Positions 13,208 to 42,509 are shown, counted from the first letter of the stretch. The stretch is DNA of 64,000 nt from an uncultured Actinomycetes bacterium (GCA_963765865.1 CAVXYE010000007.1:277923-341922); one strand, 5' to 3'. Notes: generated by a model not told the origin, from the letters alone. A program made the numbers and translations.

Positions 13208-14635
13208 ATGCTCTTCCCCACGACGGACTTCGCGATCTTCTTCTGCCTGGTCTTCCTGGGCCACTGGTGGCTGAACCACAACCCGCGGTTGTGGAAGCCC
13301 TTCATGATCGCCGCGAGCTACGTCTTCTACGGCTGGTGGAACTGGCGATACGTGTTCCTCCTCGCCGCTGTCTCCCTCATCACCCAGATCGCGGCGATCG
13401 CCATCGACCGCCAACGAGAGCCGAGGCGCCGGTCGGTCGCCTTGGCGCTCGGCGTCGCCGCGACGATCGCACCCCTCCTGTACTTCAAGTACTACGGCTT
13501 CTTCACCGTCAACGTCGCGAACGCCGCCACGACGTTCGGGCTGCACGTCGCCCCGCCGCTGATCCAGGTCGTGCTGCCGGTGGGGGTCTCCTTCTACACC
13601 TTCATGGCGATCGCCTACATCGTGGACATCTACCGCGGCGACTTCGAGGTCGCGAGCTGGGTCGACCTGTACCTCTACCTGTCCTTCTTCCCGCACCTGG
13701 TCGCCGGGCCGATCGTTCGTCCCAACGAGCTCATCCCGCAGCTCGACGTGCGGCGCGACCCCAGACACATCGACGTCGCAGGGGCGATGTGGCTGATCCT
13801 CGGCGGGTTGTTCAAGAAGGTGGTGATCGCCAACTATCTGGCGGGAGCGATCGTCGATCCCGTGTTCGGCGACCCTGCTCGGCACAGCTCGCCGGAAGCG
13901 ATCGTCGCGATCGTGGCCTACGCGGTCCAGATCTACTGCGACTTCAGTGGGTACACGGACATCGCGATCGGGATCGCGAAGTTGCTCGGGTTCCGATTCC
14001 CCCAGAACTTCGACCGCCCGTACAGCGCGCGCTCCGTCCAGGAGTTCTGGCGCCGCTGGCACATGACGCTCTCCCGGTGGCTGCGCGATTACCTCTACAT
14101 CCCGCTCGGGGGGAACCGGAAGGGAACGACGCGCACCTACGTCAACCTGATGATCACGATGCTCCTCGGCGGTCTGTGGCACGGCGCGGCCTGGCACTTC
14201 GTCGTGTGGGGGGGCTTGCACGGCGTGTACCTCGCGGTGGGCCACTGGAAGGACGGCAAGCGCGAGGCGGGGCAGCTCGCGGAACCCCCGGAGACGGCGC
14301 TCGTCCGCGGGATGCAGCAGCTCGCGACGTTCACGCTCGTGTGCATCGCGTGGACGCTCTTCCGAGCGGATTCCGTCGCGACCGCCCTCTCGTTGCTCGC
14401 GCGCACCGTGACCGCCTGGGGGCTGCCCTCACCGCTCGTCACCGCCCCTGTCCTGCTGGCCATCTCCGCCGGGCTCGTGACGCAGTTCCTTCCCCATCGG
14501 CCCGCGGAACGACTCAAGGTGGCTCTCTCGCGGCTGCGCCCGGTCCCGCTGGGGGTGACCGTCGCGGTCGTACTCTTCCTGATCACGACGCTCGGACCCC
14601 GCGGCGTCGCGCCGTTCATCTACTTCCAGTTCTGA
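13208..14635 (+). CDS. MBOAT family membrane-bound O-acyltransferase (AlgI/DltB-like)
   Basis: 475 aa, polytopic. Conserved MBOAT core (FWRRWHMTLSRWLRDYLYIPLGGNR...GLWHGAAW) with the catalytic His. Confidence 0.85.
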   Translation: MLFPTTDFAIFFCLVFLGHWWLNHNPRLWKPFMIAASYVFYGWWNWRYVFLLAAVSLITQIAAIAIDRQREPRRRSVALALGVAATIAPLLYFKYYGFFTVNVANAATTFGLHVAPPLIQVVLPVGVSFYTFMAIAYIVDIYRGDFEVASWVDLYLYLSFFPHLVAGPIVRPNELIPQLDVRRDPRHIDVAGAMWLILGGLFKKVVIANYLAGAIVDPVFGDPARHSSPEAIVAIVAYAVQIYCDFSGYTDIAIGIAKLLGFRFPQNFDRPYSARSVQEFWRRWHMTLSRWLRDYLYIPLGGNRKGTTRTYVNLMITMLLGGLWHGAAWHFVVWGGLHGVYLAVGHWKDGKREAGQLAEPPETALVRGMQQLATFTLVCIAWTLFRADSVATALSLLARTVTAWGLPSPLVTAPVLLAISAGLVTQFLPHRPAERLKVALSRLRPVPLGVTVAVVLFLITTLGPRGVAPFIYFQF

Positions 14636-14636
14636 G

Positions 14637-15698
14637 ATGACCACCGACACCCAGGAACGCACGACGACGCGTGAGCGGCCCGAGAACCCCGGCGACGGTT
14701 TGCCTCCGGGCCGCCGGGGCATGCCCGCCGGGCGGGTCCTCGTGGTGCTCCTCCTCGGGCTCCTCCTGTGGAGCCTGCTGTACGCGCCCGAGCTGAAGCG
14801 ATCGTCGGAGGCGCAGCCGGACGGTCTCCGGCGGACGGTCTCGCTCGCCGTCTTGGACCCGGTCGTGTGGGTGGAGGACCGCGTCGGCCTCGCGAGGCTG
14901 ATCGACAACGCCACCCAGGCGCTCGGTCGCCACCCGAACGAGGCGGTCGGGGGCGGCATCGACGTCGACCCGCTGCCGAGCGTTCCCGCGCCGGCACACC
15001 CCGTCGGACATCCGCAACGAGACACGAAGATCCGTGTGCCCACCGTCGCCAAGCCGTTGCGCGTGGTCGTCGTCGGGGACTCGCTGGCGCAGGGCATCGG
15101 GTCCTTCGCCGAGCGCGTATTCAAGCCGTCGCTCGTCGACGTCATCAAGCAAGGGCGCATCTCCACCGGGCTCGCTCGCCCCGACTACTTCAACTGGCCG
15201 GCACAGATGCGGACCATCGTCGATCGCTCTCGTCCCGACCTGACGATCGTGATGCTCGGCGAGAACGACGCCCAATCCCTGGTGACGCCGGCCGGCCAGG
15301 TGGTAGCCCAGATCGGCACCGGGGATTTCCCTCCCGCCTACGAACAGCGGGTCCGTGCATTCGCGAGCCTCGCGACGTCGGAGGGCGGCCACGTGATCTG
15401 GGTCGGGCTCCCCAACCCACGCGACTCGCGGCGCTGGGATTTCATCGAGCGACAGAACGGCGCCTTCCAGGCGGTCGCCGACGAGCTCCCGAACGTGTCG
15501 TTCTTCGACACGTGGAGCACGTTCGCCGCGCCGGGCGGCGGCTACACCGCGTATTACCACGACGGCAAACACCTCACGCTCGTGCGTGCTGATGATGGTG
15601 TGCACTTCAACGCCGACGGATACACGATCTTGATGCGGTTGGTCGCCCAGTTCGCGACGGATCAGTTCCGGTTGGATCCCAAGACCTACGAGGGATGA
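14637..15698 (+). CDS. SGNH/GDSL hydrolase-fold protein with an N-terminal membrane anchor (AlgJ/DltD/PatB-like O-acyl transfer partner)
   Basis: TM helix RVLVVLLLGLLLWSLL. Block I VVVVGDSLAQG and block V DGVHFNADGY. Starts 1 nt after the MBOAT stop. Confidence 0.75.
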   Translation: MTTDTQERTTTRERPENPGDGLPPGRRGMPAGRVLVVLLLGLLLWSLLYAPELKRSSEAQPDGLRRTVSLAVLDPVVWVEDRVGLARLIDNATQALGRHPNEAVGGGIDVDPLPSVPAPAHPVGHPQRDTKIRVPTVAKPLRVVVVGDSLAQGIGSFAERVFKPSLVDVIKQGRISTGLARPDYFNWPAQMRTIVDRSRPDLTIVMLGENDAQSLVTPAGQVVAQIGTGDFPPAYEQRVRAFASLATSEGGHVIWVGLPNPRDSRRWDFIERQNGAFQAVADELPNVSFFDTWSTFAAPGGGYTAYYHDGKHLTLVRADDGVHFNADGYTILMRLVAQFATDQFRLDPKTYEG

Positions 15699-16222
15699 CG
15701 GGCGGATCCGTCGGTGAGCTCCTTCACGACGTACGTGCACACCCCTGCCACGGGAAGGGCCATCCCTTCGTCCGTCTCGAGCCGAGCAGCCTGTACGAAC
15801 GGTCCGTGCGCGAACACGTACCCGAGCCGCCGGTAGAGCGAGCGCGCCGGCGCGGAGTCGTCCTCGACGCCAACGCCCAGCCCCAGCCGGGCGAAGCCCG
15901 CCGAGCGCGTCTCGCGCTCGGCTGCGGCGACGAGCGCCGTCGCGATCCCGCGACGGCGCCGGGCGGCCGCGACCCCGAGGTCCCGGATCTCCGGGCATCC
16001 CTCGCGATAGGCGGACGGCGACCACTCCGGGTGACCGGGGAACACCACCATCGCCTTGCCCGCAGGCTCGTCTCCCACCCAGGCGACCAGCTGCACGGCG
16101 AGGCCGCGCTGCTGGAACGCGAGCCGCTTGGCGTACTCGGTGGTGTTCCAGGCCGGCATGCCGGCCTGGAACGGCGCGAGGTCCGCCGGCGCGAGCCGGC
16201 GGACCTCCACCGACGCGGTCAC
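15686..16222 (-). CDS. GNAT family N-acetyltransferase
   Basis: C-terminal 178 aa of ORF 15686..16807. The GTG at 16222 forms a GTGA overlap with the TrpB2 stop. Acetyl-CoA motif [15 protein letters not shown]. Convergent 13-bp overlap with the SGNH gene. Confidence 0.65.
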
Positions 16223-17607
16223 CCGCCGAGCGAGGGTGCGTCCGGGAGGTCGGCCAGCGCGGCATCCTCCGCGGCTGGATCGAACTCGAAGTCCGGCAGC
16301 CGGCCGTTGAGGTAGTCGTCGTAGGCCTGCATGTCGAAGTAGCCGTGCCCCGACAGGTTGACCAGGATCACGCGCTCCTCGTCGGCCTCGCGCGCTGCGT
16401 CGGCCTCTTCGATCACGGCCTTCAGCCCGTGCGCGGACTCCGGCGCGGGGATGATCCCCTCGGCGTGCGCGAATCGGATCGCGGCGTCGAACACCTCGTT
16501 CTGGGTGTACGCGCGCGCCTCCATGTGGCCGTGCCGCACCAACAGCGAAAGCGACGGCGAGTCGCCGTGATAGCGGAGACCCCCGGCGTGCACGGGCGCC
16601 GGAACGAACGTGTGCCCGAGCGTGTACATCGGCAGCAGCGGCGTCATCCCGGCCGCGTCGGCGAGGTCGTACGCGAACACGCCTTTCGTCAAGGTCGGGC
16701 ATGCCGCCGGCTCGGTCGCGATGAACCTGGTCTGGGTGCGCCCGGCCAACCGATCCGCGATGAACGGGTAGGCGAGCCCGGCGTAGCTGGAGCCGCCGCC
16801 CACGCACCCGATCACGACGTGCGGGTCGCTCTCACCGGCGAGCTTCATCTGCTCCTTCGCCTCGAGCCCGATCACCGTCTGGTGCAGCAGGACGTGATTC
16901 AACACCGAGCCGAGCGAGTACTTCACCGCGCCGTTCGACGTGGCCGCCACCTCGACCGCCTCGCTGATCGCGATGCCGAGCGACCCGGTCGAGTCGGGAT
17001 GGGCCTCGAGGATCGCCTTGCCGGCCTGGGTGGTCGGCGACGGGGACGGGATCACCTCGGCGCCGAAGGTCTCCATGAAGATCCGGCGGTACGGCTTCTG
17101 CTCGTACGAGGCCTTCACCATGAAGACCTGGCATCCGATCCCGAAGAACGAGCACGCCATCGAGAGGGCAGAGCCCCACTGCCCGGCGCCCGTCTCGGTC
17201 GCGATCCGCTTCGTGCCGGCTTCCTTGTTGTAGAACGCCTGAGCGACCGCGGTGTTCGGCTTGTGCGAACCGGCCGGCGAGACCCCCTCGTACTTGTAGT
17301 AGATCCGGGCCGGCGTCTGCAGCGCCTGCTCCAGGCGAACGGCGCGATGCAGTGGCGAAGGCCGCCAGAGCCGGTACACGTCGAGGATGCCGCCGGGGAT
17401 GTCGATCCACTCCTCGGTCGCGACCTCCTGCATGATCAGCGCCTCGGGGAACAGCGGCGCCAGCAGGTCGGGCGTGACGGGTTCCTTCGTTCCGGGGTGC
17501 AGCGGCGGCAGCGGTTGGATCCCCGCCTGCACGAGCGAAGGCATGATGTTGAACCACGCGGTCGGCATGCGTTCCTGCGACAGGTCGAACCGGGTGGGCT
17601 CCATCAT
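16219..17607 (-). CDS. TrpB2-type tryptophan synthase beta-like PLP-dependent enzyme
   Basis: ORF 16219..17901, trimmed to ATG-ATG at 17607 (SD AGGAGGtcgccacATG). [17 protein letters not shown] (PLP lysine) is characteristic of TrpB2. Confidence 0.8.
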
Positions 17608-17671
17608 GTGGCGACCTCCTGTGGGACGAGCGCCGAGCCTACCGCCCCGCCGGTCGGCGAGGGAAGCCGAC

Positions 17672-17998
17672 CTAGCCGACCGGTTCGGCCGAGATCTCGA
17701 CCCAACCGTCGACCTCGCGGGCGGTGAACACGGCCAGTGGATCGCGCGCCGGGCCCTCGAGCGGCTCGCCGGTCTCGGCGTCGAACACGCTCTCGCACGC
17801 CGCGCAGAGGAGCCGATCGGATCGATCGTCGAACGAGCCGTCGGCGAGCGCGCACCCCTGGCCCGTGCAGGTCTCGCTGACGGCGAACAGCCGTCGCTCA
17901 TCGTGCGTCACGACGACGCGGCCCGCCGGGACGTCGTAGGCGCGAAGCTCACCCTCCGGGATCTCCGCGAGCGCGCCGACCCGGACGAACTCCGTCAT
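17672..17998 (-). CDS. Rieske-like/NirD-like small ferredoxin-fold protein with Cys in place of the His ligands (CTGQGC...CAAC)
   Basis: 108 aa ([23 protein letters not shown]...). Spacing matches the Rieske CxH...CxxH boxes, but both His are replaced. ATG at 17998 overlaps the upstream stop. Confidence 0.55.
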
Positions 17999-18660
17999 CA
18001 GGCGCCTCGGAGCGCCGAGTACACACGCTGCACGACCGTCACGGTCCCGAGGACGGAAAGGAGCACGAGCACCGGCAGCATCGCGCCGGGGATCACCAAC
18101 CCGATGATCAGCGCGAGCACGCGCTCGAGCCGCTGGAACAACCCGTCGCTCAAGAGGACCCCGGCCGCCTCCGCCTCGGCGCGGATATGGCTGACCACGA
18201 GGCTCACGACGAGCGTGATCAACGCGAGCGCCGCCTCCAGGCTCTTGCCATCGGCCGCCAGACGCCAGAACAAGCAGGAGAACAGGATCATGTCGGAGAC
18301 GCGGTCGAGCACGGAGTCCATGAACGCACCGGCCCGCTTGGCCTCGCCCCGGTGTCGGGCGACCGACCCGTCGAAGACGTCGGACGCGCCGGCGAGGATG
18401 AGGACGCCTCCGGCGGCCAACCACGCCCCGGTCACGATCAGCACGCCCGTGACGACGTTCAACGCGAGGGACAGCAGGGTCAGTTGCCACGGCCGGACAC
18501 CCGTCCAGATGAGGAACGCGAGGATCCCTCGGTACGGCCACGCGAAGACGCGCTGCATCGCGCCACCGGCCGCGCTCTCGTTCTTCCTCGGTGCGGGCAG
18601 GTCGCGCACGCGCGGCGCTTCCCGGACCGGTTGCCCGCGATCTCGCCCGTGGACCGTCAT
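17998..18660 (-). CDS. CDP-alcohol phosphatidyltransferase family protein (PgsA/PssA-like)
   Basis: DGSVARHRGEAKRAGAFMDSVLDRVSD matches D-G-x2-A-R-x8-G-x3-D-x3-D. Start is uncertain: ATG at 18660, 7 nt after the greA stop, or ATG at 18558. Confidence 0.65.
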   Translation of the reverse strand: MTVHGRDRGQPVREAPRVRDLPAPRKNESAAGGAMQRVFAWPYRGILAFLIWTGVRPWQLTLLSLALNVVTGVLIVTGAWLAAGGVLILAGASDVFDGSVARHRGEAKRAGAFMDSVLDRVSDMILFSCLFWRLAADGKSLEAALALITLVVSLVVSHIRAEAEAAGVLLSDGLFQRLERVLALIIGLVIPGAMLPVLVLLSVLGTVTVVQRVYSALRGA

Positions 18661-18667
18661 GACCGGC

Positions 18668-19204
18668 TCAGCCGGAGATCGGCTCGAACGAGACAACCCG
18701 GTAGCGGAAGGTTCCTCCCGGAGCCTCGTAGGAGACCTCGTCTCCTTCGGATGCGCCCATGAGCGCCGAACCGAAGGGCGACGAGGTCGTGACGGTCCGT
18801 GCTCCGGGCGCCTTCTCCTCGGCGTGTTCCGCCAACAGGTAGGTCTCGTCCTCGTCTTCGAGATCGAGCGGCTTCACGGTGACGATCATGCCGGGACCGA
18901 CCTCGTCCGCGGAAGCGGGCGCCTCAACGATCTCGGGGTCCCGCAGCATCGCCTGGATGTTGCGGATGCGCGCCTCCATGAGTCCCTGCTCGTTCTTCGC
19001 GGCGTCGTACTCGGCGTTCTCGCGGATGTCGCCGTGCTCGCGCGCGGCCTTGATGCGTTCGGCGATCGTGTCACGGCCGGAGATCGTGAGCTCCTCCAGC
19101 TCCGAACGGAGCCGGGTGTAGGCGTCTAACGTCAGCGTCGCCGTCGGCTCCTGGCCGGCGGGGCGCGGTGGACGATTGCGCAGCTCCTCGGGGAGTTCGG
19201 CCAT
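18668..19204 (-). CDS. greA: Transcription elongation factor GreA
   Basis: N-terminal coiled coil (TLDAYTRLRSELEEL...) and C-terminal FKBP-like domain (GMIVTVKPLDLEDEDETY...SPFGSALMGASEGDEV). Confidence 0.9.
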   Translation of the reverse strand: MAELPEELRNRPPRPAGQEPTATLTLDAYTRLRSELEELTISGRDTIAERIKAAREHGDIRENAEYDAAKNEQGLMEARIRNIQAMLRDPEIVEAPASADEVGPGMIVTVKPLDLEDEDETYLLAEHAEEKAPGARTVTTSSPFGSALMGASEGDEVSYEAPGGTFRYRVVSFEPISG

Positions 19205-19228
19205 CCGCCAGAGTCTAGCCAGCAGCGT

Positions 19229-21319
19229 CTAGCCAGGTGCGAAGGGTGCGTCCTGCGGGGCCGGCGCGTCGCCCGAGGGGAGCCAGACCAGGAACGATGC
19301 CCCGCCGCCATCCCGCTCCTCGGCCCAGGCCTTGCCCCCGTGCAGCTCCGCGAACCGCGCCACGAGCGTGAGTCCGATCCCGGAGCCGGGAGCATGCGTT
19401 GCGGCGTTCACCCCTCGTTCGAAGGCGCCGAAGACACGTTCGCGGTCCTCGGGCAGGAGCCCCGGACCATCGTCCTCGATCGCCAGGATCGCGCCGCCGT
19501 CGCCGGGCTGGACCCGGACCCAGATGTGAGCGTCGGGGGGCGTGTGCCGGGCCGCGTTCACCAGCAGGTTCTCGACGATCCGCTCGACCTTGGGGACATC
19601 GATCGCGACCGTTGTCGTGATCGCGTCGACGGTCACCACTCGGTCGGCGACCGCATCCGATTCGGCGACCACGTTCCGTACCACGTCGGCGAGGTCGACG
19701 GTCGCCCGCTGGGGTTCCAAGAGGCCCTGCGAAAGCCGGTCGAGGTCCAACAGATCCGTCACGAGTCGCAGCAGCTTGCGCGCGTTGCCGGCGATCCGGC
19801 GGACGAGGTCCCGCTGGACCTCCGGGTCGAGCTCGACGTCCTCACGCTCCAGCGTCAGCGCGCTCCCGAGCAAGGTGGTGAGCGGTGTTCGCAGGTCGTG
19901 CGAGACGGCCTGCAGGAACGTGTTCTTCAGCTCATCGAGCGAACGGAGGCGGGCGGAGGCCTCGCGCTCGATGTCCAATGCGCGAGCGAGGTCCTCCTCC
20001 GCTTGCTTCAAGGTCGTGATGTCGAACATCACGCCCGACCAGAAACGGGGTTCGCCGTTCTCGTCGCGCACGACCTGGGCTTGGTCGAGGACCCAGACGA
20101 CCCGGGTGTCGGGGCGGTACATCCGGTATTCGATCGAGAACGGCTCGAGCGTGCGTTCGGTGCGCTCGTCCTCCGCGTTCACGCGTTCCCGGTCGTCGGG
20201 ATGCACGAGCTCGAACCACATGCGCCGGGTCATGAACTCGTCGGGAGTGACCCCGAGCATCTGTTCGATGCCCGGGCTCGTGTACAGCGGGACGTAGTCC
20301 TCCCCGATCACGTTCACGTAGACCACGGCGGGGATCTGCTCGACCAGCGTCCGATAGAGCTCTTCGGTCTCGCGCAGGCTCCGCTCCGTCTGCTGCCGAT
20401 GGATGGCGGCCCCGAGCGTTCCGGCGGCCGCGCGGAGGGCGTCGATCTCGGCGCTCGTCCATCCGCGCTCGTGTTCGCAATCGTCGAACCCGATCGAGCC
20501 CCACCACTCCTTCCCGGCGAACACGGGCATGTCGAGGAGCGAGACGATCCCCTGCGACGCGAAGTCGTCCTTCGTTGCCGGGGGAAGGTCGGCGACGTTC
20601 ACCATCCAGGGCTCGCCGCGGCCGAGCGCTGCGCGCCATTCGTCCTGGGAGGGATCGAAGGCTTGGTCGATCGTCGCGGGGTTCCCGATCTGAGGCTCCA
20701 CGCCCGGTGCGCACCACTCGAAGCGATTGGTCGACCCGCGCTCACCGCTCGACAGCACCACGTTCTCGAACACGTGCGCACGCGACACCGCCGCTCCCTG
20801 CCCGAGCCGTCGCAGGACCTCATCGATCGCGTCCTCCCAACGGTCGGCCTGCAGGAACAACTGTGCCGCCGCGCCGATCGTTTCGAGGATCGCATCGCGC
20901 CGACCGAGCGCCAGCTCCTGCCGGACGGCCGCCGAGGCGTCCGTGAACGACGCGATCAGGTGCGGCTCACCGTTCAGCTCCGTGAGTCCGACCGCCATCC
21001 GGGCGACCGCGTCGCGCCCGTCGGGCAGCCGATAGTGGATCCGGGTGACGAGATCCCTCGCGTCACGCTCGTCGAGCGCGGCGACCTCGCGGAGCACGGT
21101 CGCCGCGTCCGTCGCGTCGATCAGGCCGATCTCATCGGGCCGTCGCCCGAGGAGATCGGCCAACGACCGGCCGCTCGCACGTTCGAAGGCCGGATTCGCA
21201 GCAACGAAGGTCAGATCGTGCATCCGAAGGACGCACATCGACGACGGGTGATCGCGGAACGTGGCCTCGTAGACCTGGCCGAGTGACTCTCTCGTGCGGG
21301 CATCCTTCATCACGGCCAC
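19229..21319 (-). CDS. Sensor histidine kinase with PAS-GAF-PAS input domains (HisKA + HATPase_c); no adjacent response regulator
   Basis: 696 aa. H-box LQAVSHDLRTPLT and G-boxes IEDDGPGL, GSGIGL. Confidence 0.85.
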   Translation of the reverse strand: MAVMKDARTRESLGQVYEATFRDHPSSMCVLRMHDLTFVAANPAFERASGRSLADLLGRRPDEIGLIDATDAATVLREVAALDERDARDLVTRIHYRLPDGRDAVARMAVGLTELNGEPHLIASFTDASAAVRQELALGRRDAILETIGAAAQLFLQADRWEDAIDEVLRRLGQGAAVSRAHVFENVVLSSGERGSTNRFEWCAPGVEPQIGNPATIDQAFDPSQDEWRAALGRGEPWMVNVADLPPATKDDFASQGIVSLLDMPVFAGKEWWGSIGFDDCEHERGWTSAEIDALRAAAGTLGAAIHRQQTERSLRETEELYRTLVEQIPAVVYVNVIGEDYVPLYTSPGIEQMLGVTPDEFMTRRMWFELVHPDDRERVNAEDERTERTLEPFSIEYRMYRPDTRVVWVLDQAQVVRDENGEPRFWSGVMFDITTLKQAEEDLARALDIEREASARLRSLDELKNTFLQAVSHDLRTPLTTLLGSALTLEREDVELDPEVQRDLVRRIAGNARKLLRLVTDLLDLDRLSQGLLEPQRATVDLADVVRNVVAESDAVADRVVTVDAITTTVAIDVPKVERIVENLLVNAARHTPPDAHIWVRVQPGDGGAILAIEDDGPGLLPEDRERVFGAFERGVNAATHAPGSGIGLTLVARFAELHGGKAWAEERDGGGASFLVWLPSGDAPAPQDAPFAPG

Positions 21320-30029: not shown

Positions 30030-30347
30030 GTGGGCCACCGTCGGCGTAGGCTGTGGGGGGTGGACACGCTGCTCGCTGTCGGTGGTCCCCGGCTCGATGC
30101 GCTCGGCGGTGGATGGGACGCCTGGCCGATCGTCGGGATCGTGATCGCCCTCTGGATCGGACGGCGCATCCTGCGGATCTCATGGGGTGCGCCGCTCCTC
30201 ATCGCCGCGCTCGTAGCCAGCCTTGCCTTGCCGCCCGCGATCCACGCGTGGGGGGTCGTGACGACCGCTGGGGTCATCTTGGTGCTGACGATCGCTCTCC
30301 TCGTCGGGCGTGCGAGCGGTTCTGCCAAACGGAACCGCGCCGTTTGA
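30030..30347 (+). CDS. Small hypothetical membrane protein (about 105 aa, 3 TM helices)
   Basis: GC-biased third positions. Bracketed by the two operator-like palindromes; the stop codon lies inside the second one. Start uncertain (GTG at 30030). Confidence 0.35.
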   Translation: MGHRRRRLWGVDTLLAVGGPRLDALGGGWDAWPIVGIVIALWIGRRILRISWGAPLLIAALVASLALPPAIHAWGVVTTAGVILVLTIALLVGRASGSAKRNRAV

Positions 30348-30355
30348 CAGACAAA
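30343..30355. promoter_or_regulatory. Second, imperfect copy of the operator-like site (TTTGAC-A-GACAAA)
   Basis: Shares the 15-nt core GCTTTGTCTG(A/T)CAAA with the first site, in opposite orientation. Lies 58 nt upstream of the permease ATG. Confidence 0.4.
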
Positions 30356-30412
30356 GCACGATGTGGCTCCATACCCGCCGAGAGCCCGGCTGCGGTGAGA
30401 GAGGAGGGGCCG

Positions 30413-32074
30413 ATGTCGGAACGCAAGGTCGGGTCCGTCACCTACCAGGAGGTCGGTGAGGACTACTTCAAGCAGCGCGGCCTCCGGCGTCACGCCGGCG
30501 TGGTGTCGCTGTGGGCGCTCGGGGTCGGCGCCGTCATCTCCGGCGAGTACTACGGCTGGAACTTCGGCCTCAGCACCGGTGGTTTCGGGGGCCTGCTCCT
30601 CGCCGGCGTCGTGATGGCCGTCATGTATTACGGCCTCGTCTACTCGATCGCCGAGATGTCGCCCGCCCTGCCCCACACCGGCGGCGCCTACTCGTTCGCG
30701 CGTTCGGCGATGGGACCGTGGGGCGGATTCCTCACCGGCTTGGCCGAGAACATGGAGTACGTGATCACACCCGCGGTCGTCGCAGGGGCGATGGCCCTGT
30801 TGATGCAGACGATCGTCACGGGCCTGTTCGACGTCGGTGGGACCTTCGTTGACGGGAAGCTCACGGACATCGCGTGGTGGAACAGCCTGCCGGTGTGGAT
30901 GGCCGTGTTCTACGTCATCTTCGTGTGGATCAACATCGTCGGGATCGAAGCCACGATGCGATTCACCGTCACGATCACCGTGCTCTCGATCGCGGTGCTC
31001 GTCTTCTTCTTCCTCGCGACGATCTTCTCCGGCAAGTTCGACTCGAGCTTCTGGACGAACATCCCGAAGGATTGGGACGGAGAGTCCGCGTTGCTCGCCG
31101 GGGGCGGTGGACCATTCCTGCCGTTCGGCATCGCCGGGATCTTCAAGGCGCTTCCGTTCGCGATCTGGTTCTTCCTCGCCATCGAGGAGGTACCGCTCGC
31201 GGCCGAGGAGTCGATGGATCCCCGGCGCGACGTCCCGAAGGGGTCGGTGCTGGCGATGCACACCTTGTTGATCGCCGCCATCCTGACCCTGTTCCTCAAC
31301 ACCGGTCTGCCGGAGGGGGCCGGCTTCTACGGCTCGTCCGCGTTCCCGCTCCTGGACGGGTTCACGGCGATCTTCGGAACGGGAAAGGTGACCTACCTCC
31401 TCGGGTTGCTGTTCATGATCGGGTTGATCGCGAGCTTCTTCACGATCATCTTCGCCTATGGTCGGAACACGTTCTCCCTGTCGCGGGCCGGCTACTTCCC
31501 GAAGTTCTTGTCGGTGACGCACGGGGAGCGGAAGACCCCGCACGTCGCCCTGATCGCAGGCGCCATCGTCGGGTACGCGGTCGCGGTACTCGTCTACATC
31601 CTCCAAGAGAAGGCGCTGGGCGCGAAGATCGTCGCGGCCTTGCTGAACATGGCCGTCTTCGCCGCGGTGATCTCGTACATCTTCCAGATGACGTCGTTCG
31701 TGGTCCTCCGGAGGAAGCTGCCGAACATCGAGCGACCGTATCGGAGTCGTTGGGGGATCCCCGGGGCGGTCATCGCGGGGGCCTTGGCCGCGACCGCCCT
31801 GGTCGCGATCTTCTTGAACGACGCGTATCGACCCGGCGTCTATGGGGTCGCGATCTACTACGTCCTCGGGGTCTTGTACTTCGCGATCGCGGGACGGAAC
31901 CGCCTCGTGCTTTCACCGGAGGAGGAGTTCGCGCTCACGCAGGGTTCACGCGGCATCCCGGGCCAGGAGGGCTACGTGACCACGGCCGCCGAACAGGAGG
32001 CGATCCTCGGTGGTGGTACGGCGAGCGCACCCCCGCCCACGTCACCTCCACCGATGTCACCGCCGTCCGAGTAG
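30413..32074 (+). CDS. APC superfamily amino acid/amine permease
   Basis: ORF 30053..32074, trimmed to the ATG at 30413 (SD GAGAGGAGGGG). 12 TM helices. C-terminal Pro-rich tail. Confidence 0.85.
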   Translation: MSERKVGSVTYQEVGEDYFKQRGLRRHAGVVSLWALGVGAVISGEYYGWNFGLSTGGFGGLLLAGVVMAVMYYGLVYSIAEMSPALPHTGGAYSFARSAMGPWGGFLTGLAENMEYVITPAVVAGAMALLMQTIVTGLFDVGGTFVDGKLTDIAWWNSLPVWMAVFYVIFVWINIVGIEATMRFTVTITVLSIAVLVFFFLATIFSGKFDSSFWTNIPKDWDGESALLAGGGGPFLPFGIAGIFKALPFAIWFFLAIEEVPLAAEESMDPRRDVPKGSVLAMHTLLIAAILTLFLNTGLPEGAGFYGSSAFPLLDGFTAIFGTGKVTYLLGLLFMIGLIASFFTIIFAYGRNTFSLSRAGYFPKFLSVTHGERKTPHVALIAGAIVGYAVAVLVYILQEKALGAKIVAALLNMAVFAAVISYIFQMTSFVVLRRKLPNIERPYRSRWGIPGAVIAGALAATALVAIFLNDAYRPGVYGVAIYYVLGVLYFAIAGRNRLVLSPEEEFALTQGSRGIPGQEGYVTTAAEQEAILGGGTASAPPPTSPPPMSPPSE

Positions 32075-32142
32075 TCCCGACCCATCGCGGGGCGGCGGGC
32101 GATCCGCCCGCCGCCCCGCGACCGTGACGGCGAGGAGGCGAG

Positions 32143-33525
32143 ATGCAGCGGCAGGGGATGCTCACCATCGAGGAGCTCCAGGAGCTCGCCCGGAACAACC
32201 GGATCGACACCGTCCTCTGCATGTTCACCGACCTCCAGGGCCGGTACATGGGCAAGCGGGTGCTCCCGGACTTCTTCATCGAGGAGATCTTGGGCGCGGA
32301 AGGCCTGCACGCCTGTCTGTACCTGCTGGCGATCGACATGGAGATGGAGCCGCTCCCCGGGTACCGGTACGCCAGCTGGGAGACCGGCTACGGCGACTTC
32401 CGGATGATCCCGGATCTCACGACCCTCCGCTGGTGCCCGTGGATCGACAAGACCGCGATGGTGCTCTGCGACATCGCCGACGAGGACACGAGCGAGCCGG
32501 TCGCCGTCGCTCCTCGCCAGATCCTGAAGGACCAGATCGCGAAGGCCGCCGCCCAGGGGTATCAGGTCAAGACCGGGTCGGAGCTCGAGTTCTACCTCTT
32601 CAAGGACTCGTTCGACGATCTGGCGGAGCGCGCCTACCGAGATCCACGGCCGAGCTCCCCGTACATCATGGACTACCACATGCTGCAGACCACGAAAGAC
32701 GAGTGGTTCATCCGCCAGGTCCGCAACCACATGCGCGGTGCCGGTGTCCCGATCGAATTCTCCAAGGGGGAGTTCGGCAAGGGCCAGCACGAGATCAACA
32801 TCACCTACTCGGACGCGCTGTCGAACGCCGACCATCACGCGATCTACAAGCACGGTGCGAAGGAGATCGCCGCGCTCAGCGGCGTGGCGCTCACGTTCAT
32901 GGCGAAGTGGACGATGGCCGAGGCCGGTTCCTCGTGCCACCTCCATTCCAGCGTGTGGGACGTGGACGGTTCGGAGTCGCTCATGTGGGGCGGCGACACG
33001 CCGCCCCACATGAGCGACACCTTCCGGTGGTACCTGGGCGGCCTGATGACCACCGCGCGCGAGATGGCCTGGATGTACGCGCCCTTCGTCAACTCCTACA
33101 AGCGCTACCAGCTGGGATCGTGGGCACCGACCGCGATCGTGTGGAGCCGCGACAACCGCACGTGCGGGTTCCGCACGGTCGGCGAGCACACGGGGTTCCG
33201 CGTGGAATGCCGGTTGCCGGGCGCCGACGCGAACCCGTACCTCGCCTTCGCCGCCACGATCGCGAGCGGGATGTGGGGGATCCGCAACAAGGTGGAACCA
33301 CCGGAGATGTTCCACGGCAACGCCTACGAGGCCAAGGACGTCCCCCGTGTCCCGACCTCGTTGCACGAGGCGGTCGAGACGTTCCGCGGATCGACGGTCG
33401 CACGCGAGGCGTTCGGGGACTTCGTGTTCGAGCACCTGTTGAACACGGCCGAACAGGAACAGATCATCTTCGACAACACGTGCGTGACCGACTGGGAGCT
33501 GGCCCGGTACTTCGAGCGCGGGTGA
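32143..33525 (+). CDS. Glutamine synthetase family protein (GlnA3/PuuA-like gamma-glutamyl-amine ligase)
   Basis: 460 aa. GS catalytic-domain motifs (KGEFGKGQHEIN, SGMWGIRNK). Confidence 0.85.
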   Translation: MQRQGMLTIEELQELARNNRIDTVLCMFTDLQGRYMGKRVLPDFFIEEILGAEGLHACLYLLAIDMEMEPLPGYRYASWETGYGDFRMIPDLTTLRWCPWIDKTAMVLCDIADEDTSEPVAVAPRQILKDQIAKAAAQGYQVKTGSELEFYLFKDSFDDLAERAYRDPRPSSPYIMDYHMLQTTKDEWFIRQVRNHMRGAGVPIEFSKGEFGKGQHEINITYSDALSNADHHAIYKHGAKEIAALSGVALTFMAKWTMAEAGSSCHLHSSVWDVDGSESLMWGGDTPPHMSDTFRWYLGGLMTTAREMAWMYAPFVNSYKRYQLGSWAPTAIVWSRDNRTCGFRTVGEHTGFRVECRLPGADANPYLAFAATIASGMWGIRNKVEPPEMFHGNAYEAKDVPRVPTSLHEAVETFRGSTVAREAFGDFVFEHLLNTAEQEQIIFDNTCVTDWELARYFERG

Positions 33526-33530
33526 GCGCG

Positions 33531-34575
33531 ATGGCAGACCTGAACGTCATCCCGTACCGACCTGAGCGGAGCGACTACGCGTGGACGTTCGGTGGCGCCG
33601 ATCCGGTGATGACGGTGAAGCCCGGGGACGTGCTCGAGCTCTGGACGGATGACTGCTTCACGGGACTCGTCAGCACCGTCGACGACCTGGCGTCGGAGAA
33701 GATCACGTTCCCGTTCCTGAACCCGCAGACGGGACCGTTCTTCGTCGAGGGGGCGGAGCCCGGCGACACGCTGGCGTTGCATCTCGTCTCCCTCGAACCC
33801 GCGAGGGACTGGGGCGTCTCGACGACCTTCCCGCTGTTCGGCGCGCTCACCTCGACCCTCGCGACGGTGACGCTGCAGGATCCGCTCGAGGAGCTCGTCT
33901 GGATCTACGAGGTGGACGCGACGCGGCGCACCGTCCGCTACGAAGCCCGGCGCAGCGACCACACCGTCGAGCTCCCGCTCGAGCCGATGCACGGCACGGT
34001 GGGCGTGGCGCCGGCCAACCTCGAGGCGCGCTCGGCACTGGTTCCCGGCCCGCACGGCGGCAACATGGACACGCCGGAGATGCGCGCGGGCACCACGTGT
34101 TACCTCGGCGTCAACGTTCCGGGCGCGCTGTTCTCGATCGGAGACGGCCATTACCGCCAGGGTGAGGGCGAGACGTGTGGCGTGGCCGTCGAAGGAGCGA
34201 TGGAGACCACGTTGATCGTCGATCTGATCAAGGGCCGCCAGACGCCCTGGCCGCGCTTGGAGGACGAGACCTACATCATGTCGACGGGTTCCGCGCGCCC
34301 GCTCGAGGATGCGTTCCGGATCGCCCACGGCGACCTGGTCCTGTGGCTCGTCGAGGAGTCCGGCCTGGACAAGCTCGACGCCTACCAGTTGGTGACGCAG
34401 ATCTCGGAGAGCCCCGTCGCGAACGTCTGCGACCCGAACTACACGTTCGTCGCGAAGGCCAGGAAGGAGTACCTCCCGGGTCGCGAGGTATACGGGCAGA
34501 CGCACGGCGGCTCGTGGAGATGGCAGTCGGCGTACCGGCGAGGCCCGAGGGAGCGAACCCGCTCCCTCATCCTGA
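33531..34575 (+). CDS. Acetamidase/formamidase (FmdA_AmdA) family amidase; no in-frame stop, 3' end uncertain
   Basis: MADLNVIPYRPE... is confidently family-like for about 316 aa. After about 34480 the frame becomes R-rich with rare codons and runs without a stop into the permease ATG at 34710. The only stop in the region (TGA at 34573) is in another frame. Confidence 0.55.
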
Positions 34576-34709
34576 CGGAGTACGTCCGAGGATTTCGCCT
34601 CGAGCGACGGCTGGACAGGCCCGCCCTCCGGTGCAACGATTCGCGCGACGTCAGCTGGTGGGGAACGCCCGCTCGACGGGCGCCTCCACCATTCGGGAGG
34701 GGGTGCCGC

Positions 34710-36259
34710 ATGGCAAGCCGAACCGACGAACAGGCGATGATCTCGGAGAAGGTCGCGCCGGTCCTCGTGGCGAGGACGCTCGGGCCGTTCGACCTCGTCG
34801 TGATCTTCGTCGCGATCGTCCTGTTCATCAACAACGCGGCGGGGGTGCAGGCCGCGGGACCGTCGATCTTCGTCTTCTGGATCCTCGCGTTCGCGACGTT
34901 CCTGATCACCGGCGGGTTCATCACCGCGCAGCTCGGCCGGATGTTCCCCGAGGAGGGATCCCTCTACGTGTGGACCCACAAGGTCCTGGGCCCGTTCTGG
35001 GGGTTCTTCGCCGGGTTCGTCGCCTGGTGGCCCGGCCCGATCTCGCTCGTGTTCATCGGGATCCTCGTGGCCAACTTCCTCCAATCGTTCGCGTCGTTCT
35101 TCACGTGCAACGGCGCGCCGTGCGAGATCCTCACGAAGAACTGGCAACTCGGGCTCGTGGTGCTCGCCGTCCTCTGGTTCAGCGCTTCGATGTCGTACCT
35201 GAAGATGCGCGTGACGCAGAACTACGTGAACGTACAGTTCTGGGCGTACGTCTCAGTGATCTTCTTGATCGGCCTCTCCGGCGTGATCTGGCTCCTGAAG
35301 GGGAACCCGTCCTCGACCTCGTTCGCCACGGGGTGGAACCCGTTCCAGGGCGAGCACGCTCGCGCTCGGACTTCCCGCGAACCTGACGTTCTTCTCCTTC
35401 GCGATCCTCGCCCTCCTCGGGATCGAGACGCCCCTGAACATGGGGGTCGAGGTCACGGGCGGCGAGAAGGCGATCAGGACGTTCCTGTTCTGGGGCAGCA
35501 TCATCGTGATGGCCGCCTACCTCTGGGCTACCTGGGGCAACATGGTCGTGATCGAGGCCGGAGGGGCGAACGGCACGACGGGCGGCGCGGAGACCGTCGG
35601 GCTCGCGATCGGCAAGTGGGCGGGAGCGCATCGTCTCGATCGTCATGGCGTGGGTGTTCCTGACCGTGGCGGTCGTCTACAACTACTCCTTCGGCCGACT
35701 GCTGTTCGTGTCCGGGCTGGAGAAGCGCCTCCCCCACCAGTTCGGCAAGGTCAACCGGAACAAGGTACCGGCGAACGCGATCACCTTGCAGACGGCGATC
35801 TCCACGATCCTCGCGATCTTCGTGTTCTTCATCGTGGGACGCGGAGAGGCAGACCCGTATAAGGCCTTCTACGTCCTCTACGCGGGCGTGACGATCGTGT
35901 GGTGCATCTCGACCGCGTTGTTGTTCCTCGACATCTTCTTCGCGAAGCGAGCCGAGCCGGAGCGGTTCGAGCAGGAGCGCCGGATCCCCGTCGGATGGCT
36001 CTTCGTCTGCGGCGCGGTCGGGTTCGTGGTCAACGTCCTGGCGGTGATGTTCATCTTCGTTGGGTCGTGGTACCCGACGGGATTCCCGGTCCTCAAGGTG
36101 TGGAACGAGTGGATGCTCGCGTTCACGGCCGTCTCCGTGATCTCGGGGATCGCGATCTACCTGATCTCGCAGCGCACGCGTCGCGGGAAGACCGACGTGG
36201 AGCTCCTCGGCGAGGGTGCGGCGACCCAGGAGATCGCGGAGGACACGTCCATGGCGTGA
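34710..36259 (+). pseudogene. APC superfamily permease, disrupted by two +1 frameshifts (or sequencing indels) at GGG runs near 35349 and 35623
   Basis: The protein continues across three frames: ...GWNPFQG | ASTLALGLPANLTFFSFAILALLGIETP...AIGKWA | ERIVSIVMAWVFLTV... Confidence 0.7.
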
Positions 36260-36287
36260 CCCGCTTCGACGCACGGAGGGCAGTGAT

Positions 36288-36314
36288 GGGGCCCCGCCCG
36301 AAGGGCGGGGCCCC
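36288..36314. terminator. GC-rich hairpin (12-bp perfect stem, GAA loop) between convergent genes; probable bidirectional terminator without a U-tract
   Basis: GGGGCCCCGCCC-GAA-GGGCGGGGCCCC. Confidence 0.5.
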
Positions 36315-36334
36315 ATCGCATCCGGGAACGTCCC

Positions 36335-37507
36335 TCAGCCGCTCAGGCCGTGCAGGCCTCGACAGCTGTCGCCGAGGATGAGCTCTCCGAGGCGGTGGGC
36401 CTCGTCGACCGCGACGTAGTCGCGGTCGACGAGGCGCCCGAGGACCCGTTGGAGCGCGGCCCGAGCCATCAGGGCCGCGACCCAGAAGCCCTCGGGCTCG
36501 CCCGCCTCATCCGATCCGTACATGATCTTCGCGGCGGGGACGGAGCCCACGATGAGGTCGAGCGCGGGCTCGACCTGTCCCCACCCCCACGGGATGAGCT
36601 CGGAGAGCTCGAGGTAGACGTTCGGCAGGACCGAGGCGATGAACGCCCCCTCCTCGACCCAGGGGAACCCGCTGTGCACCAGCACGACCGGTTGGTGCTG
36701 GACGTCGACCAGCAACGGGAACAACCCCTTGGGCGACGCGTGCTCCAGGTCGATGTCGGGGTCCCCGCCGCCGCAGTGGAAATGGAACGCTCGGTCGTGC
36801 GCCTTGGCGACCGCGAGCGTTCGCCGGATCAGGAAGTCCCTGACCGGTTTCGCGTGCGCCCGCGTCTCGCCCCAGCCGTCGGCGCGCCAGCGCGTGAAGG
36901 CCTCCGCCGCCTCCGACGGCGAGGGATCGCCGACGTCCAGGCCGGTCCGGTACGCGACGATCGACTTGTACGCGACGCAGTTCGGGTCGGAGGCGGCCTC
37001 GGTCGCATCGGCCTCCACGCCGGCGACCAGGTCATCGAACGTCCCTTCGCGTCTCGCGAGGATCCACGGCTCCAGGCGCGCGACGCGGTGCACCGGCACG
37101 CCGATCGTCCCGGCGAACTCCGGCGCGGGGATCGGCGGCTGCGGGTAGCCCTCATCGGCGAGGACCGCCACCACACCGGCCGCATCGAGGAGGCTCTTCG
37201 TGTACGCCACGGGGTCGGCGCGCAACGCGACCTCGCGCGCGGCCGCGACCGCCTCGCGCGTGGGCTCGCACTCGAGGTGACGCGCGAGCCAACGCACGAT
37301 CGTGATCCCCATCACCGTCGAGTCCGTCAGCCGGTCCGCGGTCGGCCACAGCTCCGGATCCAGCCGCGACGACGAGGAGAACGACTCGCCGAGGAAGGTC
37401 GCTCGGGTGTCGAAGCCTTCGGACCCCTTCTCGAGCAAGTCCTCCATGCGATAGGGATGCGTATGCGCGTCGACGATCTGGAGACCCGACAGGTCGACGT
37501 CAGCCAT
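36335..37507 (-). CDS. Amidohydrolase-2 (PF04909-like) metal-dependent TIM-barrel hydrolase
   Basis: 390 aa. N-terminal IVDAHTH metal-binding motif. Confidence 0.75.
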   Translation of the reverse strand: MADVDLSGLQIVDAHTHPYRMEDLLEKGSEGFDTRATFLGESFSSSSRLDPELWPTADRLTDSTVMGITIVRWLARHLECEPTREAVAAAREVALRADPVAYTKSLLDAAGVVAVLADEGYPQPPIPAPEFAGTIGVPVHRVARLEPWILARREGTFDDLVAGVEADATEAASDPNCVAYKSIVAYRTGLDVGDPSPSEAAEAFTRWRADGWGETRAHAKPVRDFLIRRTLAVAKAHDRAFHFHCGGGDPDIDLEHASPKGLFPLLVDVQHQPVVLVHSGFPWVEEGAFIASVLPNVYLELSELIPWGWGQVEPALDLIVGSVPAAKIMYGSDEAGEPEGFWVAALMARAALQRVLGRLVDRDYVAVDEAHRLGELILGDSCRGLHGLSG

Positions 37508-37519
37508 CGAGCCCTCCGC

Positions 37520-38920: not shown

Positions 38921-38925
38921 CGGGC

Positions 38926-40254: not shown

Positions 40255-40321
40255 GCCGGCTCCTTCCGTCCCGCGCAACGGCTCCCGGTGTGGTGGGTAT
40301 ACCTTGACGGCCCATTGGTCC

Positions 40322-40336
40322 GCAACGGGGCGTTGC
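40322..40336. promoter_or_regulatory. Perfect inverted repeat GCAACG-GGG-CGTTGC in the divergent GS/aminotransferase promoter region
   Basis: Lies next to an 8-bp palindrome GGTATACC (40295-40302) and a TTGACG -35-like hexamer. Confidence 0.3.
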
Positions 40337-40397
40337 CCTACGCTAGGCGGAAGGCGGGACCGTGCGGGCAGGCACGGCCCGCGTGAAGGGGAGCCGG

Positions 40398-42499: not shown

Positions 42500-42509
42500 G
42501 GAGACGACG

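Follow-up and report, generated by a model that had tools for sequence, protein, structure and literature searches.

Three neighbouring genes on the minus strand of an uncultured Actinomycetes genome raise two questions: do they form a pathway, and what became of the metal site in the smallest of their products? Profile matches confirmed the presence of all three, a CDP-alcohol phosphotransferase (CDPOH), a 108-aa Rieske-fold protein and a TrpB2 enzyme, in the window, by which we mean the whole 64,000-nt stretch of DNA that was analysed. An earlier sequence-only reading had linked them tentatively to the modification of a serine-derived lipid head group and had pointed to the loss of histidine ligands in the small protein. 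On balance, taking our best explanation as a whole, we think it probable that these genes do not form a three-gene pathway but belong to a longer run of co-directional genes shared across the lineage.

A gene string shared across one lineage

One uncultured Actinomycetota lineage carries the string greA-CDPOH-Rieske-trpB2, with an insert of 0-4 kb ahead of trpB2, in approximately 40 species-level genomes. The transferase, Rieske and trpB2 genes shared a strand and were syntenic in 37 of the loci that could be assessed (40 in all), even where the Rieske-fold protein had fallen to 47% identity, and they were still linked, at a distance, in a deeper relative (L045). The expected association of the transferase gene with trpB2 in relatives was thereby borne out, but such an association falls short of demonstrating a shared pathway. 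The gene greA, encoding a transcript cleavage factor (18668..19204, minus strand; Pfam GreA_GreB_N and GreA_GreB), lies 5' of the transferase gene in every assessable locus, and its product has best NCBIfam scores slightly below the cut-offs (TIGR01462, 131.9 bits vs 139; NF001263, 127 vs 145). Because greA and a divergent MBOAT/DUF459 pair showed synteny equal to that of the three genes, gene order mirrors lineage history as much as function. Moreover, since every locus comes from one lineage, synteny is weak evidence of functional coupling. No trp, inositol or PIM genes were found in the approximately 45 kb of the window searched, where only two GT4 glycosyltransferases were present, about 10 kb away. 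An Rfam scan of the whole window returned no RNA family.

The transferase and TrpB2

The transferase gene (17998..18660, minus strand) encodes a PIP-synthase-like CDP-alcohol phosphotransferase of 220 aa (Pfam PF01066, E=2e-14). It starts 7 nt past the greA stop, and its own stop shares one base with the ATG of the Rieske gene (TGATG). The start at 18660 is supported by three-periodic conservation over the 22 codons upstream of an inner ATG, and the protein carries a conserved, Arg/Pro-rich N-terminal extension of 34 aa. In 22 of the 37 genome-collection loci that could be measured cleanly, and throughout the crown clade, the transferase and Rieske genes overlapped or lay at most 5 nt apart. 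The Dx2DGx2ARx8Gx3Dx3D motif, which on a polytopic membrane protein marks the CDP-alcohol phosphotransferases, is complete and reads DVFDGSVARHRGEAKRAGAFMDSVLD in the translation. The best NCBIfam matches were AIP and PIP synthases, both below cut-off (104.6 bits vs 170 for the PIP synthase model NF045883; 111.1 vs 180). The best solved relative was PgsA1 of M. tuberculosis (6H53), and the alignment retained the equivalent of Arg94, a residue critical for inositol phosphate (ino-P) binding and activity in PgsA1 (PMC6506517), and placed His, Glu and Leu at the positions of Tyr133, Arg137 and Pro153, respectively. The previous assignment to the PgsA/PssA family did not hold, as TIGR00473 (PssA) gave 23.7 bits vs 107 and TIGR00560 gave 24.8 vs 109.1, both far below cut-off. 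Judged by profiles and alignment, the enzyme appears to resemble the inositol-phosphate-using PIP synthases most closely, not PssA.

The trpB2 gene (16219..17607, minus strand) encodes 462 aa and scored above cut-off with both NF009057 (692.7 bits vs 366) and TIGR01415 (626.5 vs 518.85). Its best solved relatives were the Sulfolobus TrpB2 chains 6HUL_B and 4QYS, and the GSHK motif with the PLP lysine aligned with that of 6HUL_B. No TrpB paralogue was found within the window. TrpB2 enzymes of Thermotoga and Sulfolobus use O-phosphoserine (Busch 2014, as cited in PMC11917138), and we assume, by homology only, that the window enzyme might do so too. A GNAT acetyltransferase gene (15686..16222, minus strand; Pfam Acetyltransf_1) follows, its probable GTG start overlapping the trpB2 stop (GTGA). 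A GNAT gene lies 3' of trpB2 in 8 of the 37 trpB2-bearing genome-collection loci and in L002. In L041, GNAT is present without trpB2. TrpB2 remains an orphan enzyme here, and this GNAT gene, with its probable start on the trpB2 stop, is the sole new lead.

Promoter-like elements and the pathway idea

Upstream alignment revealed two conserved promoter-like elements. The -10-like hexamer TAGACT (19212..19217, minus strand) lies 13 nt 5' of the greA ATG, which has no Shine-Dalgarno site, and each of the 39 loci examined has a TANNNT element (TAGACT, TACACT and others) at -12 to -16 relative to greA. It is probably the promoter of a leaderless greA transcript that carries the transferase and Rieske genes too; in the window, greA, CDPOH and Rieske are packed, with a 7-nt gap and a 1-nt overlap, behind this -10-like element of the leaderless-transcript kind. 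The second hexamer, TAGGCT (17636..17641, minus strand), lies 34 nt 5' of the trpB2 ATG, followed by the Shine-Dalgarno site AGGAGG (17615-17620, minus strand). The combination of TA[GC]GCT and AGGAGG was present in 38 of 40 loci, whichever gene precedes, with the hexamer at -32 to -43 relative to trpB2 in 36 loci, at -56 in L029 and at -75 in L043. This hexamer is the likely trpB2 promoter, and trpB2, its stop overlapped by the GNAT gene, follows behind its own -10-like element and Shine-Dalgarno site. A conserved internal promoter of this kind leaves room for read-through from the Rieske gene into trpB2. Several loci with a canonical-type Rieske protein have a separate -10-like motif for the Rieske gene, which there leads a Rieske-gnd-zwf unit, so the Rieske-transferase link is not universal. 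A scan of positions 15500-19500 for E. coli-type promoters and terminators found nothing, the E. coli model being uninformative for an actinobacterium of 70% GC. A hairpin over the Rieske stop, considered as a terminator or attenuator, was rejected (z = -0.76 vs shuffled sequences; not conserved across loci).

The proposed pathway, in which the transferase, the Rieske-like protein and TrpB2 jointly make or alter a lipid head group derived from serine, draws on their co-stranded synteny, on the linkage persisting in L045 and on the phosphoserine use of known TrpB2 enzymes. In it, TrpB2 would carry out a beta-replacement on serine or phosphoserine, with the small protein as a redox or zinc partner. 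Against it, trpB2 has its own conserved promoter-like element, and 15 of the 37 loci have 1-4 kb of unrelated genes inserted between Rieske and trpB2, including those for 6PGDH (gnd), G6PD (zwf), an aldo-keto reductase, PD40 propellers, PAP2 and a lysyl-oxidase-like protein. Additionally, greA and the MBOAT/DUF459 pair are equally syntenic, the transferase is PIP-synthase-like, with the Arg94 equivalent kept and the PssA score low, and a PLP-dependent beta-replacement can proceed without a redox partner. Moreover, trpB2 is not known to have a conserved neighbourhood except in trp operons (PMC1854888). We regard the joint pathway as very improbable; the analysis thus removed the tempting link between TrpB2 and lipid synthesis as unsupported.

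A Rieske-fold protein without histidine ligands

The small gene (17672..17998, minus strand) encodes a soluble, acidic Rieske-fold protein of 108 aa (Pfam Rieske, AF2 and Foldseek), in which a four-cysteine site replaces Cys2His2. With a GC3 of 0.90, 212 homologues and a dN/dS of 0.13-0.32, indicating purifying selection, the open reading frame is not a chance one. The product matched Pfam Rieske (PF00355, E=5e-9) and, at the borderline, the NirD-type Rieske_2 model (27.6 bits vs a cut-off of 27). The structure prediction proposed with the sequence-only reading was run with AF2 and returned the Rieske fold, with three antiparallel sheets and two metal-binding loops (pLDDT 95.3); in Foldseek, the model reached TM 0.88-0.91 to CarAc-type Rieske ferredoxins. 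The N-terminus is directly the first beta strand, and 22 D/E residues stand against 9 K/R. A 36-sequence alignment contained 33 invariant columns. The cluster-covering Pro loop GPARDP is kept in the family, and the strongest conservation is found in non-ligand surface residues. No reductase or oxygenase gene was found near the Rieske-fold gene in the window regions scanned. Among the 150 nearest cluster representatives, ten longer Rieske-matching proteins were scanned, and in none of them is the Rieske domain joined to TrpB, G6PD or a CDP-alcohol transferase; one is an odd B12-cap fusion, and the others contain DUF2231 or Rieske domains in tandem.

Column counts against orthologues allowed each ligand position to be assigned. 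Box I, C44-T-G46-Q-G-C49 (17852..17869, minus strand), aligned with CTHxGC orthologues, retains the ligand Cys44 and the former disulfide Cys49 and has Gly in place of His46. Box II, C65-A-A67-C68 (17795..17806, minus strand), retains the ligand Cys65, has lost the disulfide Cys67 and has Cys in place of His68. The alignment with canonical orthologues is ungapped across both boxes; these deeper orthologues carry CTHxGC...CPCHGS, the respiratory-type disulfide motif. Both His ligands are thus replaced, as had been noticed, and the analysis confirms a genuine and unusual Rieske-like protein that lacks them. The accompanying statement that both Cys of each Rieske box are kept is correct for box I; in box II only the first Cys is an original one, position 67 is Ala, and Cys68 is new, at the His position.

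The cysteines are conserved in homologues. Among 121 relatives, C44 and C65 were present in all 121, C49 in 120, C68 in 105 and G46 in 100, and the combination of Gly46 and Cys68 was shared by the window protein and 98 relatives, in place of the canonical C-x-H...C-x-x-H ligand set. In a neighbour-joining (NJ) tree of 165 sequences, the CGCCxC state, with the spacing C-x4-C...C-x2-C on the two Rieske loops, was fixed in a crown of approximately 110 distinct sequences in which position 67 varies freely. The canonical CHCCCH state was basal and paraphyletic, and the transition zone held CHCCxC, CHCCxD and C[YFNQ]CCx[DC] states, so that Cys3His and Cys3Asp intermediates are both present. The family has lost His ligands on at least three independent occasions, some of them on deep branches; the relatives in L039 and L041 retain C44 and C65 alone, and others combine Asp68 with Tyr, Phe, Val or Ala at position 46 while the rest of the protein is kept. 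Ligand loss did not track the loss of gnd-zwf, since the His-less locus L047 has gnd-zwf and the canonical locus L019 is without it.

The polarity of the tree shows descent from a soluble canonical Rieske [2Fe-2S] protein. In the window clade, His46 changed to Gly, Cys67 disappeared and His68 changed to Cys, leaving four invariant cysteines (44, 49, 65 and 68) on the metal-binding loops of an otherwise unchanged, strongly acidic fold. No description of a natural His-less four-Cys Rieske protein was found in the literature searched, which is not proof of absence.

Nature of the putative metal site

Because the cysteines are conserved and their pattern is fixed throughout the window clade, a four-thiolate metal site is a reasonable reading, in line with the non-canonical Cys-ligand site put forward earlier. 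We infer that the four thiolates bind a metal, and a single Zn or Fe appears more likely than an all-Cys [2Fe-2S] cluster. Interchange of C, D and H at one position with three Cys kept is typical of mononuclear Zn or Fe sites, and exactly this is seen at position 68 of the family. Our tentative preference is for one tetrahedral Zn or Fe ion in a zinc-ribbon or rubredoxin-like site. The protein would serve as a docking partner of another protein, the first candidate in the window clade being the co-translated transferase and, in deeper relatives, the 6PGDH/G6PD pair. In rubredoxin and zinc-ribbon sites, two loops contribute two Cys each, usually as CxxC...CxxC, to one Fe or Zn. The C-x4-C of the first loop differs from the C-x2-C of a rubredoxin knuckle, which counts against a mononuclear site.

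An all-Cys, low-potential [2Fe-2S] cluster would make the protein an electron-carrying ferredoxin with a partner encoded elsewhere in the genome. Its ancestors are canonical Rieske proteins, its surface is acidic and ferredoxin-like, and the Pro loop GPARDP is conserved. [quoted passage not shown] However, cluster assembly largely fails in ARF H44C/H64C, whereas the re-spaced cysteines of H44I/K45C/H64C give a rubredoxin-like Fe(Cys)4 site (PMC2946596). The fourth Cys of the window protein comes from three residues further along the loop and Gly occupies the His position, which suggests a contracted site. In the relatives with Asp68 and Tyr, Phe, Val or Ala at 46, ligation of a second iron is implausible, although the rest of the protein is kept, and the neighbourhood contains no reductase or oxygenase. 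We consider the all-Cys cluster rather unlikely. Slightly more doubtful still is a defunct site. The protein would then be a thiol/disulfide switch or, like NirD, a subunit or adaptor that has the Rieske fold but no cluster, its cysteines being conserved for disulfides or packing rather than metal. The at least three independent losses of His ligands, the relatives with C44 and C65 alone, the Rieske_2 match with TM 0.85 to M. tuberculosis NirD (4AIV) and the peak of conservation in non-ligand surface residues agree with this reading. The crown clade speaks against it: there the four Cys and Gly46 are fixed beside a freely varying position 67, the pattern expected of ligands, and the His68-to-Cys exchange, which takes two nucleotide changes, was frozen thereafter. 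Moreover, stable disulfides are unusual in cytoplasmic proteins such as this one. Repeated ligand loss in relatives could also point to a dispensable site that binds no metal.

A more far-reaching proposal concerns the orthologous, syntenic family as a whole. A natural Cys2His2 Rieske [2Fe-2S] site would have passed stepwise through Cys3His and Cys3Asp to a four-Cys site of another metal type, coinciding with translational coupling to a PIP-synthase-like membrane enzyme; the small protein would be dedicated to lipid head-group synthesis, as a subunit or regulator that depends on metal or redox state, and would play the same role for 6PGDH/G6PD in deeper relatives. We consider this full scheme improbable.

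What makes a protein scaffold take up an Fe-S cluster rather than a mononuclear metal, or the reverse, has so far been studied largely with engineered Rieske and rubredoxin variants. The present family is the same experiment carried out by evolution, with canonical, 3Cys+1His, 3Cys+Asp and four-Cys forms at one genomic position. Its members are small and soluble, and thus suited to expression and comparison. The wider importance of the small protein is moderate.

Comparison with known systems

The 108-aa protein is similar to the Rieske-type ferredoxins of ring-hydroxylating oxygenases (CarAc, 1VCK/3GCE; BphF, 1FQT; TodB, 3DQY), which are likewise soluble, acidic and about 105 aa long, share its three-sheet fold (TM 0.86-0.91) and conserved Pro loop, and are its best sequence matches in PDB and NCBIfam. 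Unlike these ferredoxins, it has both His replaced and an extra loop Cys (C49), at 21-28% identity; no oxygenase or reductase genes are nearby, and the NCBIfam scores are far below cut-off (44 bits vs 113). Its deeper orthologues share exactly the double-Cys motif of respiratory and sulredoxin-type Rieske proteins (CTHLGC...CPCHGS), and its top PDB sequence match is the soluble domain of Chlorobaculum PetC (8HN2). In contrast to the respiratory (bc1/b6f-type) proteins, it has no membrane anchor, Tat signal, Cys67 or His ligands, and no cytochrome b gene was found in the window parts scanned, so it does not qualify as a respiratory Rieske protein. Like NirD/Rieske_2 subunits such as 4AIV, it is a small Rieske-fold protein in which the Cys2His2 ligand set is gone. 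However, NirD-type subunits are retained as protein partners without a cluster and have none of the cysteines, whereas the window protein keeps four conserved ones at the old site. No nirB was found in the window regions scanned or in 40 syntenic loci, and the protein does not qualify as a NirD subunit.

The transferase has the full CDP-alcohol motif and the Arg94 equivalent, as in actinobacterial PgsA1 (6H53) and archaeal AIP synthase, but it differs from both in its sub-cut-off scores, its pocket residues and its 34-aa N-terminal extension; its gene sits after greA and not in a pimA/patA operon. TrpB2 shows an equivalog-level NCBIfam match and the PLP lysine motif of the Thermotoga and Sulfolobus enzymes and, as in the trpB2_o class (PMC1854888), its gene lies outside any trp operon. 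Unlike known TrpB2 genes, it is followed by GNAT in part of the lineage, in the window with a start that probably overlaps its stop.

The engineered ARF variants are altered in the same two loops, and ARF H64C corresponds to the natural CTHxGC...CxxC intermediates. In contrast to these laboratory variants, the family is a natural series, with C-x4-C spacing in a first loop where Gly has taken the place of His, and the window protein draws its fourth Cys from the former disulfide. Among these designs, the re-spaced four-Cys ARF variant, with its rubredoxin-like Fe(Cys)4 site, comes closest to the window protein.

Gene organization and the small Rieske-fold protein

In the window (GC content ~70%), five genes follow one another on the minus strand in the order greA (18668-19204), a CDP-alcohol phosphotransferase gene (CDPOH, 17998-18660), a gene for a Rieske-like protein of 108 amino acids (17672-17998), trpB2 (16219-17607) and a GNAT gene (15686-16222). 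The transferase, the Rieske-like protein and TrpB2, which a sequence-only reading had placed on the same strand, were all confirmed. Beyond GNAT lies a divergent plus-strand pair (13208-15698), an MBOAT O-acyltransferase and an adjoining DUF459/SGNH protein, which converges on trpB2 or GNAT in most loci and is a pairing reminiscent of polysaccharide or peptidoglycan O-acetylation systems. Additionally, three glutamine-synthetase-like paralogues (32143-33525, 38926-40278 and 43863-45152), accompanied by amino-acid permeases, an amidohydrolase, a class-III aminotransferase and a GATase/peptidase C26 protein, form a group (30053-45152) resembling an amine catabolic cluster of the gamma-glutamylation type.

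The small Rieske-fold protein is genuine and under constraint, because it matches Pfam Rieske and the Rieske ferredoxins in the PDB, its predicted structure (pLDDT 95.3) superposes on CarAc, BphF and TodB with TM 0.86-0.91, and its 212 homologues, every one from uncultured Actinomycetota, accompany a dN/dS of 0.13-0.32. An alignment of 36 diverse family members contained 33 invariant columns. The protein is very acidic (22 D/E and 9 K/R), with neither a membrane anchor nor a signal peptide found. The representative of its 50% cluster, P0121 (192 aa), joins a B12-binding_2 cap-domain fragment to a four-Cys Rieske domain; it probably derives from a chimeric or mis-assembled contig, but could be a genuine fusion.

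Replacement of the Rieske ligands

Among 121 sequences, C44, C49 and C65 (window protein numbering) were invariant or almost so, whereas the first Rieske His, position 46, was Gly in 100 and His in 14, and the second, position 68, was Cys in 105, Asp in 10 and His in five. Orthologues from 41 species-level genomes carried the canonical respiratory-type CTHxGC...CPCHGS in the deeper branches. In trees rooted with a Sphingomonas Rieske ferredoxin, the canonical state was basal and paraphyletic, and CTGxGC...CxxC[ED]S defined a derived crown, in which C44, G46, C49, C65 and C68 were fixed in ~110 distinct sequences and position 67 was free to vary. The transition zone between them held CTHxGC...CxxC (3Cys+1His), CTHxGC...CxxD and CT[YFN]xGC...CxxD, and independent His losses occurred in deep branches (CPADGC...CPCDTS, CTVxGC...CxDDGS, CPEDGS...CAQDAS and CPGDGA...CPGDAA). 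When the 149 nearest 50%-identity cluster representatives across all Rieske-like proteins were compared, ligand sets other than the canonical one were almost confined to this family's closest relatives, and most of the remaining representatives were CxH...CxxH.

The His-less, four-Cys protein is real and unusual, as first proposed, with a Rieske fold and cysteines fixed in the crown. The proposal that both Cys of each Rieske box are kept holds for box I (C44 and C49) and fails for box II, which the canonical orthologues show to have lost the disulfide Cys67 and to have exchanged His68 for Cys.

Synteny and transcription units

In each of the 39 assessable genome loci, CDPOH preceded the Rieske gene on the same strand, separated from it by at most 93 nt or overlapping in 35 of them, and by at most 5 nt or overlapping in 22 of the 37 loci where the gap could be measured cleanly. 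trpB2 was downstream of the Rieske gene in 37/40 loci. The loci all belong to one lineage, and greA and MBOAT/DUF459 were equally conserved; the synteny of CDPOH, Rieske gene and trpB2 is strong but by itself uninformative. The same string also occurred in bins labelled Planctomycetaceae (L012) and Gemmatimonadota (L024), with 61-71% identity to the window for the Rieske protein and 69-79% for CDPOH; both contigs were probably binned wrongly.

Between the Rieske gene and trpB2, 15 loci carry a 1-4 kb insert of heterogeneous genes, including 6PGDH-like, G6PD, lysyl-oxidase-like secreted protein, aldo-keto reductase, PD40 and DUF5122 propeller, and PAP2 genes. Deeper relatives have the order greA-CDPOH-Rieske-6PGDH-G6PD-membrane protein-trpB2, with CDPOH, Rieske and 6PGDH joined by 4-nt overlaps, so the direct Rieske-trpB2 adjacency in the window is secondary. 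In L025, L028, L029, L034, L038, L039, L045 and L047-L049, the Rieske gene is succeeded, often with a 4-nt overlap, by a short 6PGDH-like gene and, after it, G6PD; L045 continues with a polytopic membrane protein of 394 aa that has no Pfam match. This places a Rieske gene beside oxidative pentose-phosphate genes.

A TA[GC]GCT hexamer of the actinobacterial -10 type (TANNNT) and an AGGAGG site preceded the trpB2 ATG in 38/40 loci, regardless of the upstream gene, with the hexamer at -32 to -43 in 36. Every locus examined (L001-L048) also had a TANNNT hexamer between -16 and -12 relative to the greA ATG (window 19212-19217, minus strand), TAGACT and TACACT being the usual forms, and no Shine-Dalgarno site was found before greA in any of them. 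Because of this proximity and the missing site, the hexamer is a putative promoter of a leaderless greA mRNA. A CTAGAC core is present twice upstream of greA in the window, 14 nt apart. No TANNNT-type motif was found before CDPOH or the Rieske gene in the window's clade. Together, these motifs point to two units: greA-CDPOH-Rieske would form one transcript, and trpB2, with or without GNAT, another. In several canonical-type loci (CDPOH-Rieske gap 40-90 nt), a separate TANNNT motif and a Shine-Dalgarno site precede the Rieske gene itself, so the tie to the transferase is clade-specific rather than universal.

TrpB2 and the transferase

TrpB2 matched NF009057 at equivalog level (692.7 bits; cut-off 366), and its nearest solved structures were Sulfolobus TrpB2 chains, with the PLP lysine motif aligned. 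No conserved trpB2 neighbourhood is known outside trp operons (PMC1854888). TrpB2 substrates are given as O-phosphoserine and indole (Busch 2014, as cited in PMC11917138). Such chemistry requires no redox partner. The inserts, the secondary adjacency and the conserved TA[GC]GCT/AGGAGG motifs set trpB2 apart from CDPOH and the Rieske gene and speak against the suggested joint pathway for serine-derived lipid head groups. The probable GTG start of GNAT overlaps the trpB2 stop as GTGA (16219-16222), and GNAT followed trpB2 in 8 of the 37 genome-collection loci with trpB2; this arrangement may be a hint that the TrpB2 product is N-acetylated.

CDPOH has the complete Dx2DGx2ARx8Gx3Dx3D motif. Its assignment to the PgsA/PssA family was not borne out, as both models scored ~24 bits against cut-offs >100. 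The closest matches were inositol-phosphate-using enzymes, namely M. tuberculosis PgsA1 (6H53) and the AIP and PIP synthase models, all models being below cut-off. The equivalent of Arg94, critical in PgsA1, is kept, but those of Tyr133, Arg137 and Pro153 are altered; judged from sequence, the enzyme appears PIP-synthase-like, its acceptor being putative. Translation probably starts at ATG 18660, 7 nt past the greA stop, because the 22 codons before an inner ATG show codon-periodic conservation (0.90, 0.92 and 0.68 at positions 1, 2 and 3), in agreement with the end coordinate of the sequence-only reading. The conserved, translated, Arg/Pro-rich N-terminal extension (18559-18660, minus strand; ...REAPRVRD(M/L)PAPRKNESAAGGA...) falls outside the aligned part of PgsA1 and is a possible site at which the acidic small protein docks. 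A PAP2-family phosphatase gene directly follows the Rieske gene in two loci, at L022 7330-7926 and L026 4631-5227 (opposite strand); the mycobacterial phosphatase converting PIP to PI is unidentified (PMC6506517).

Probable nature of the metal site

In the natural crown form, Gly occupies the place of the first His and the former disulfide Cys49 has been recruited, and position 68 interchanges C, D and H while three Cys stay. Such an interchange is typical of mononuclear Zn/Fe sites. In engineered Sulfolobus ARF, the H64C variant assembles a low-potential 3Cys+1His [2Fe-2S] cluster, assembly largely fails in H44C/H64C, and an Fe(Cys)4 site like that of rubredoxin forms when the cysteines are re-spaced (H44I/K45C/H64C) (PMC2946596). 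On the strength of this precedent, of Gly46 with Cys49 and of the interchange at position 68, we tentatively favour a single tetrahedral metal over both other readings. An all-Cys [2Fe-2S] cluster, on which the H64C and H44C/H64C variants bear in opposite directions, seems rather unlikely, and a site empty of metal, to be set beside cysteines fixed throughout the crown, somewhat less likely still. The family is of moderate interest, since it supplies an existing evolutionary series in which metal-site selection can be studied. The fold of the small protein is a known one, this natural form of it is new, and the nearest precedent for its site is found in the engineered Sulfolobus ARF variants.
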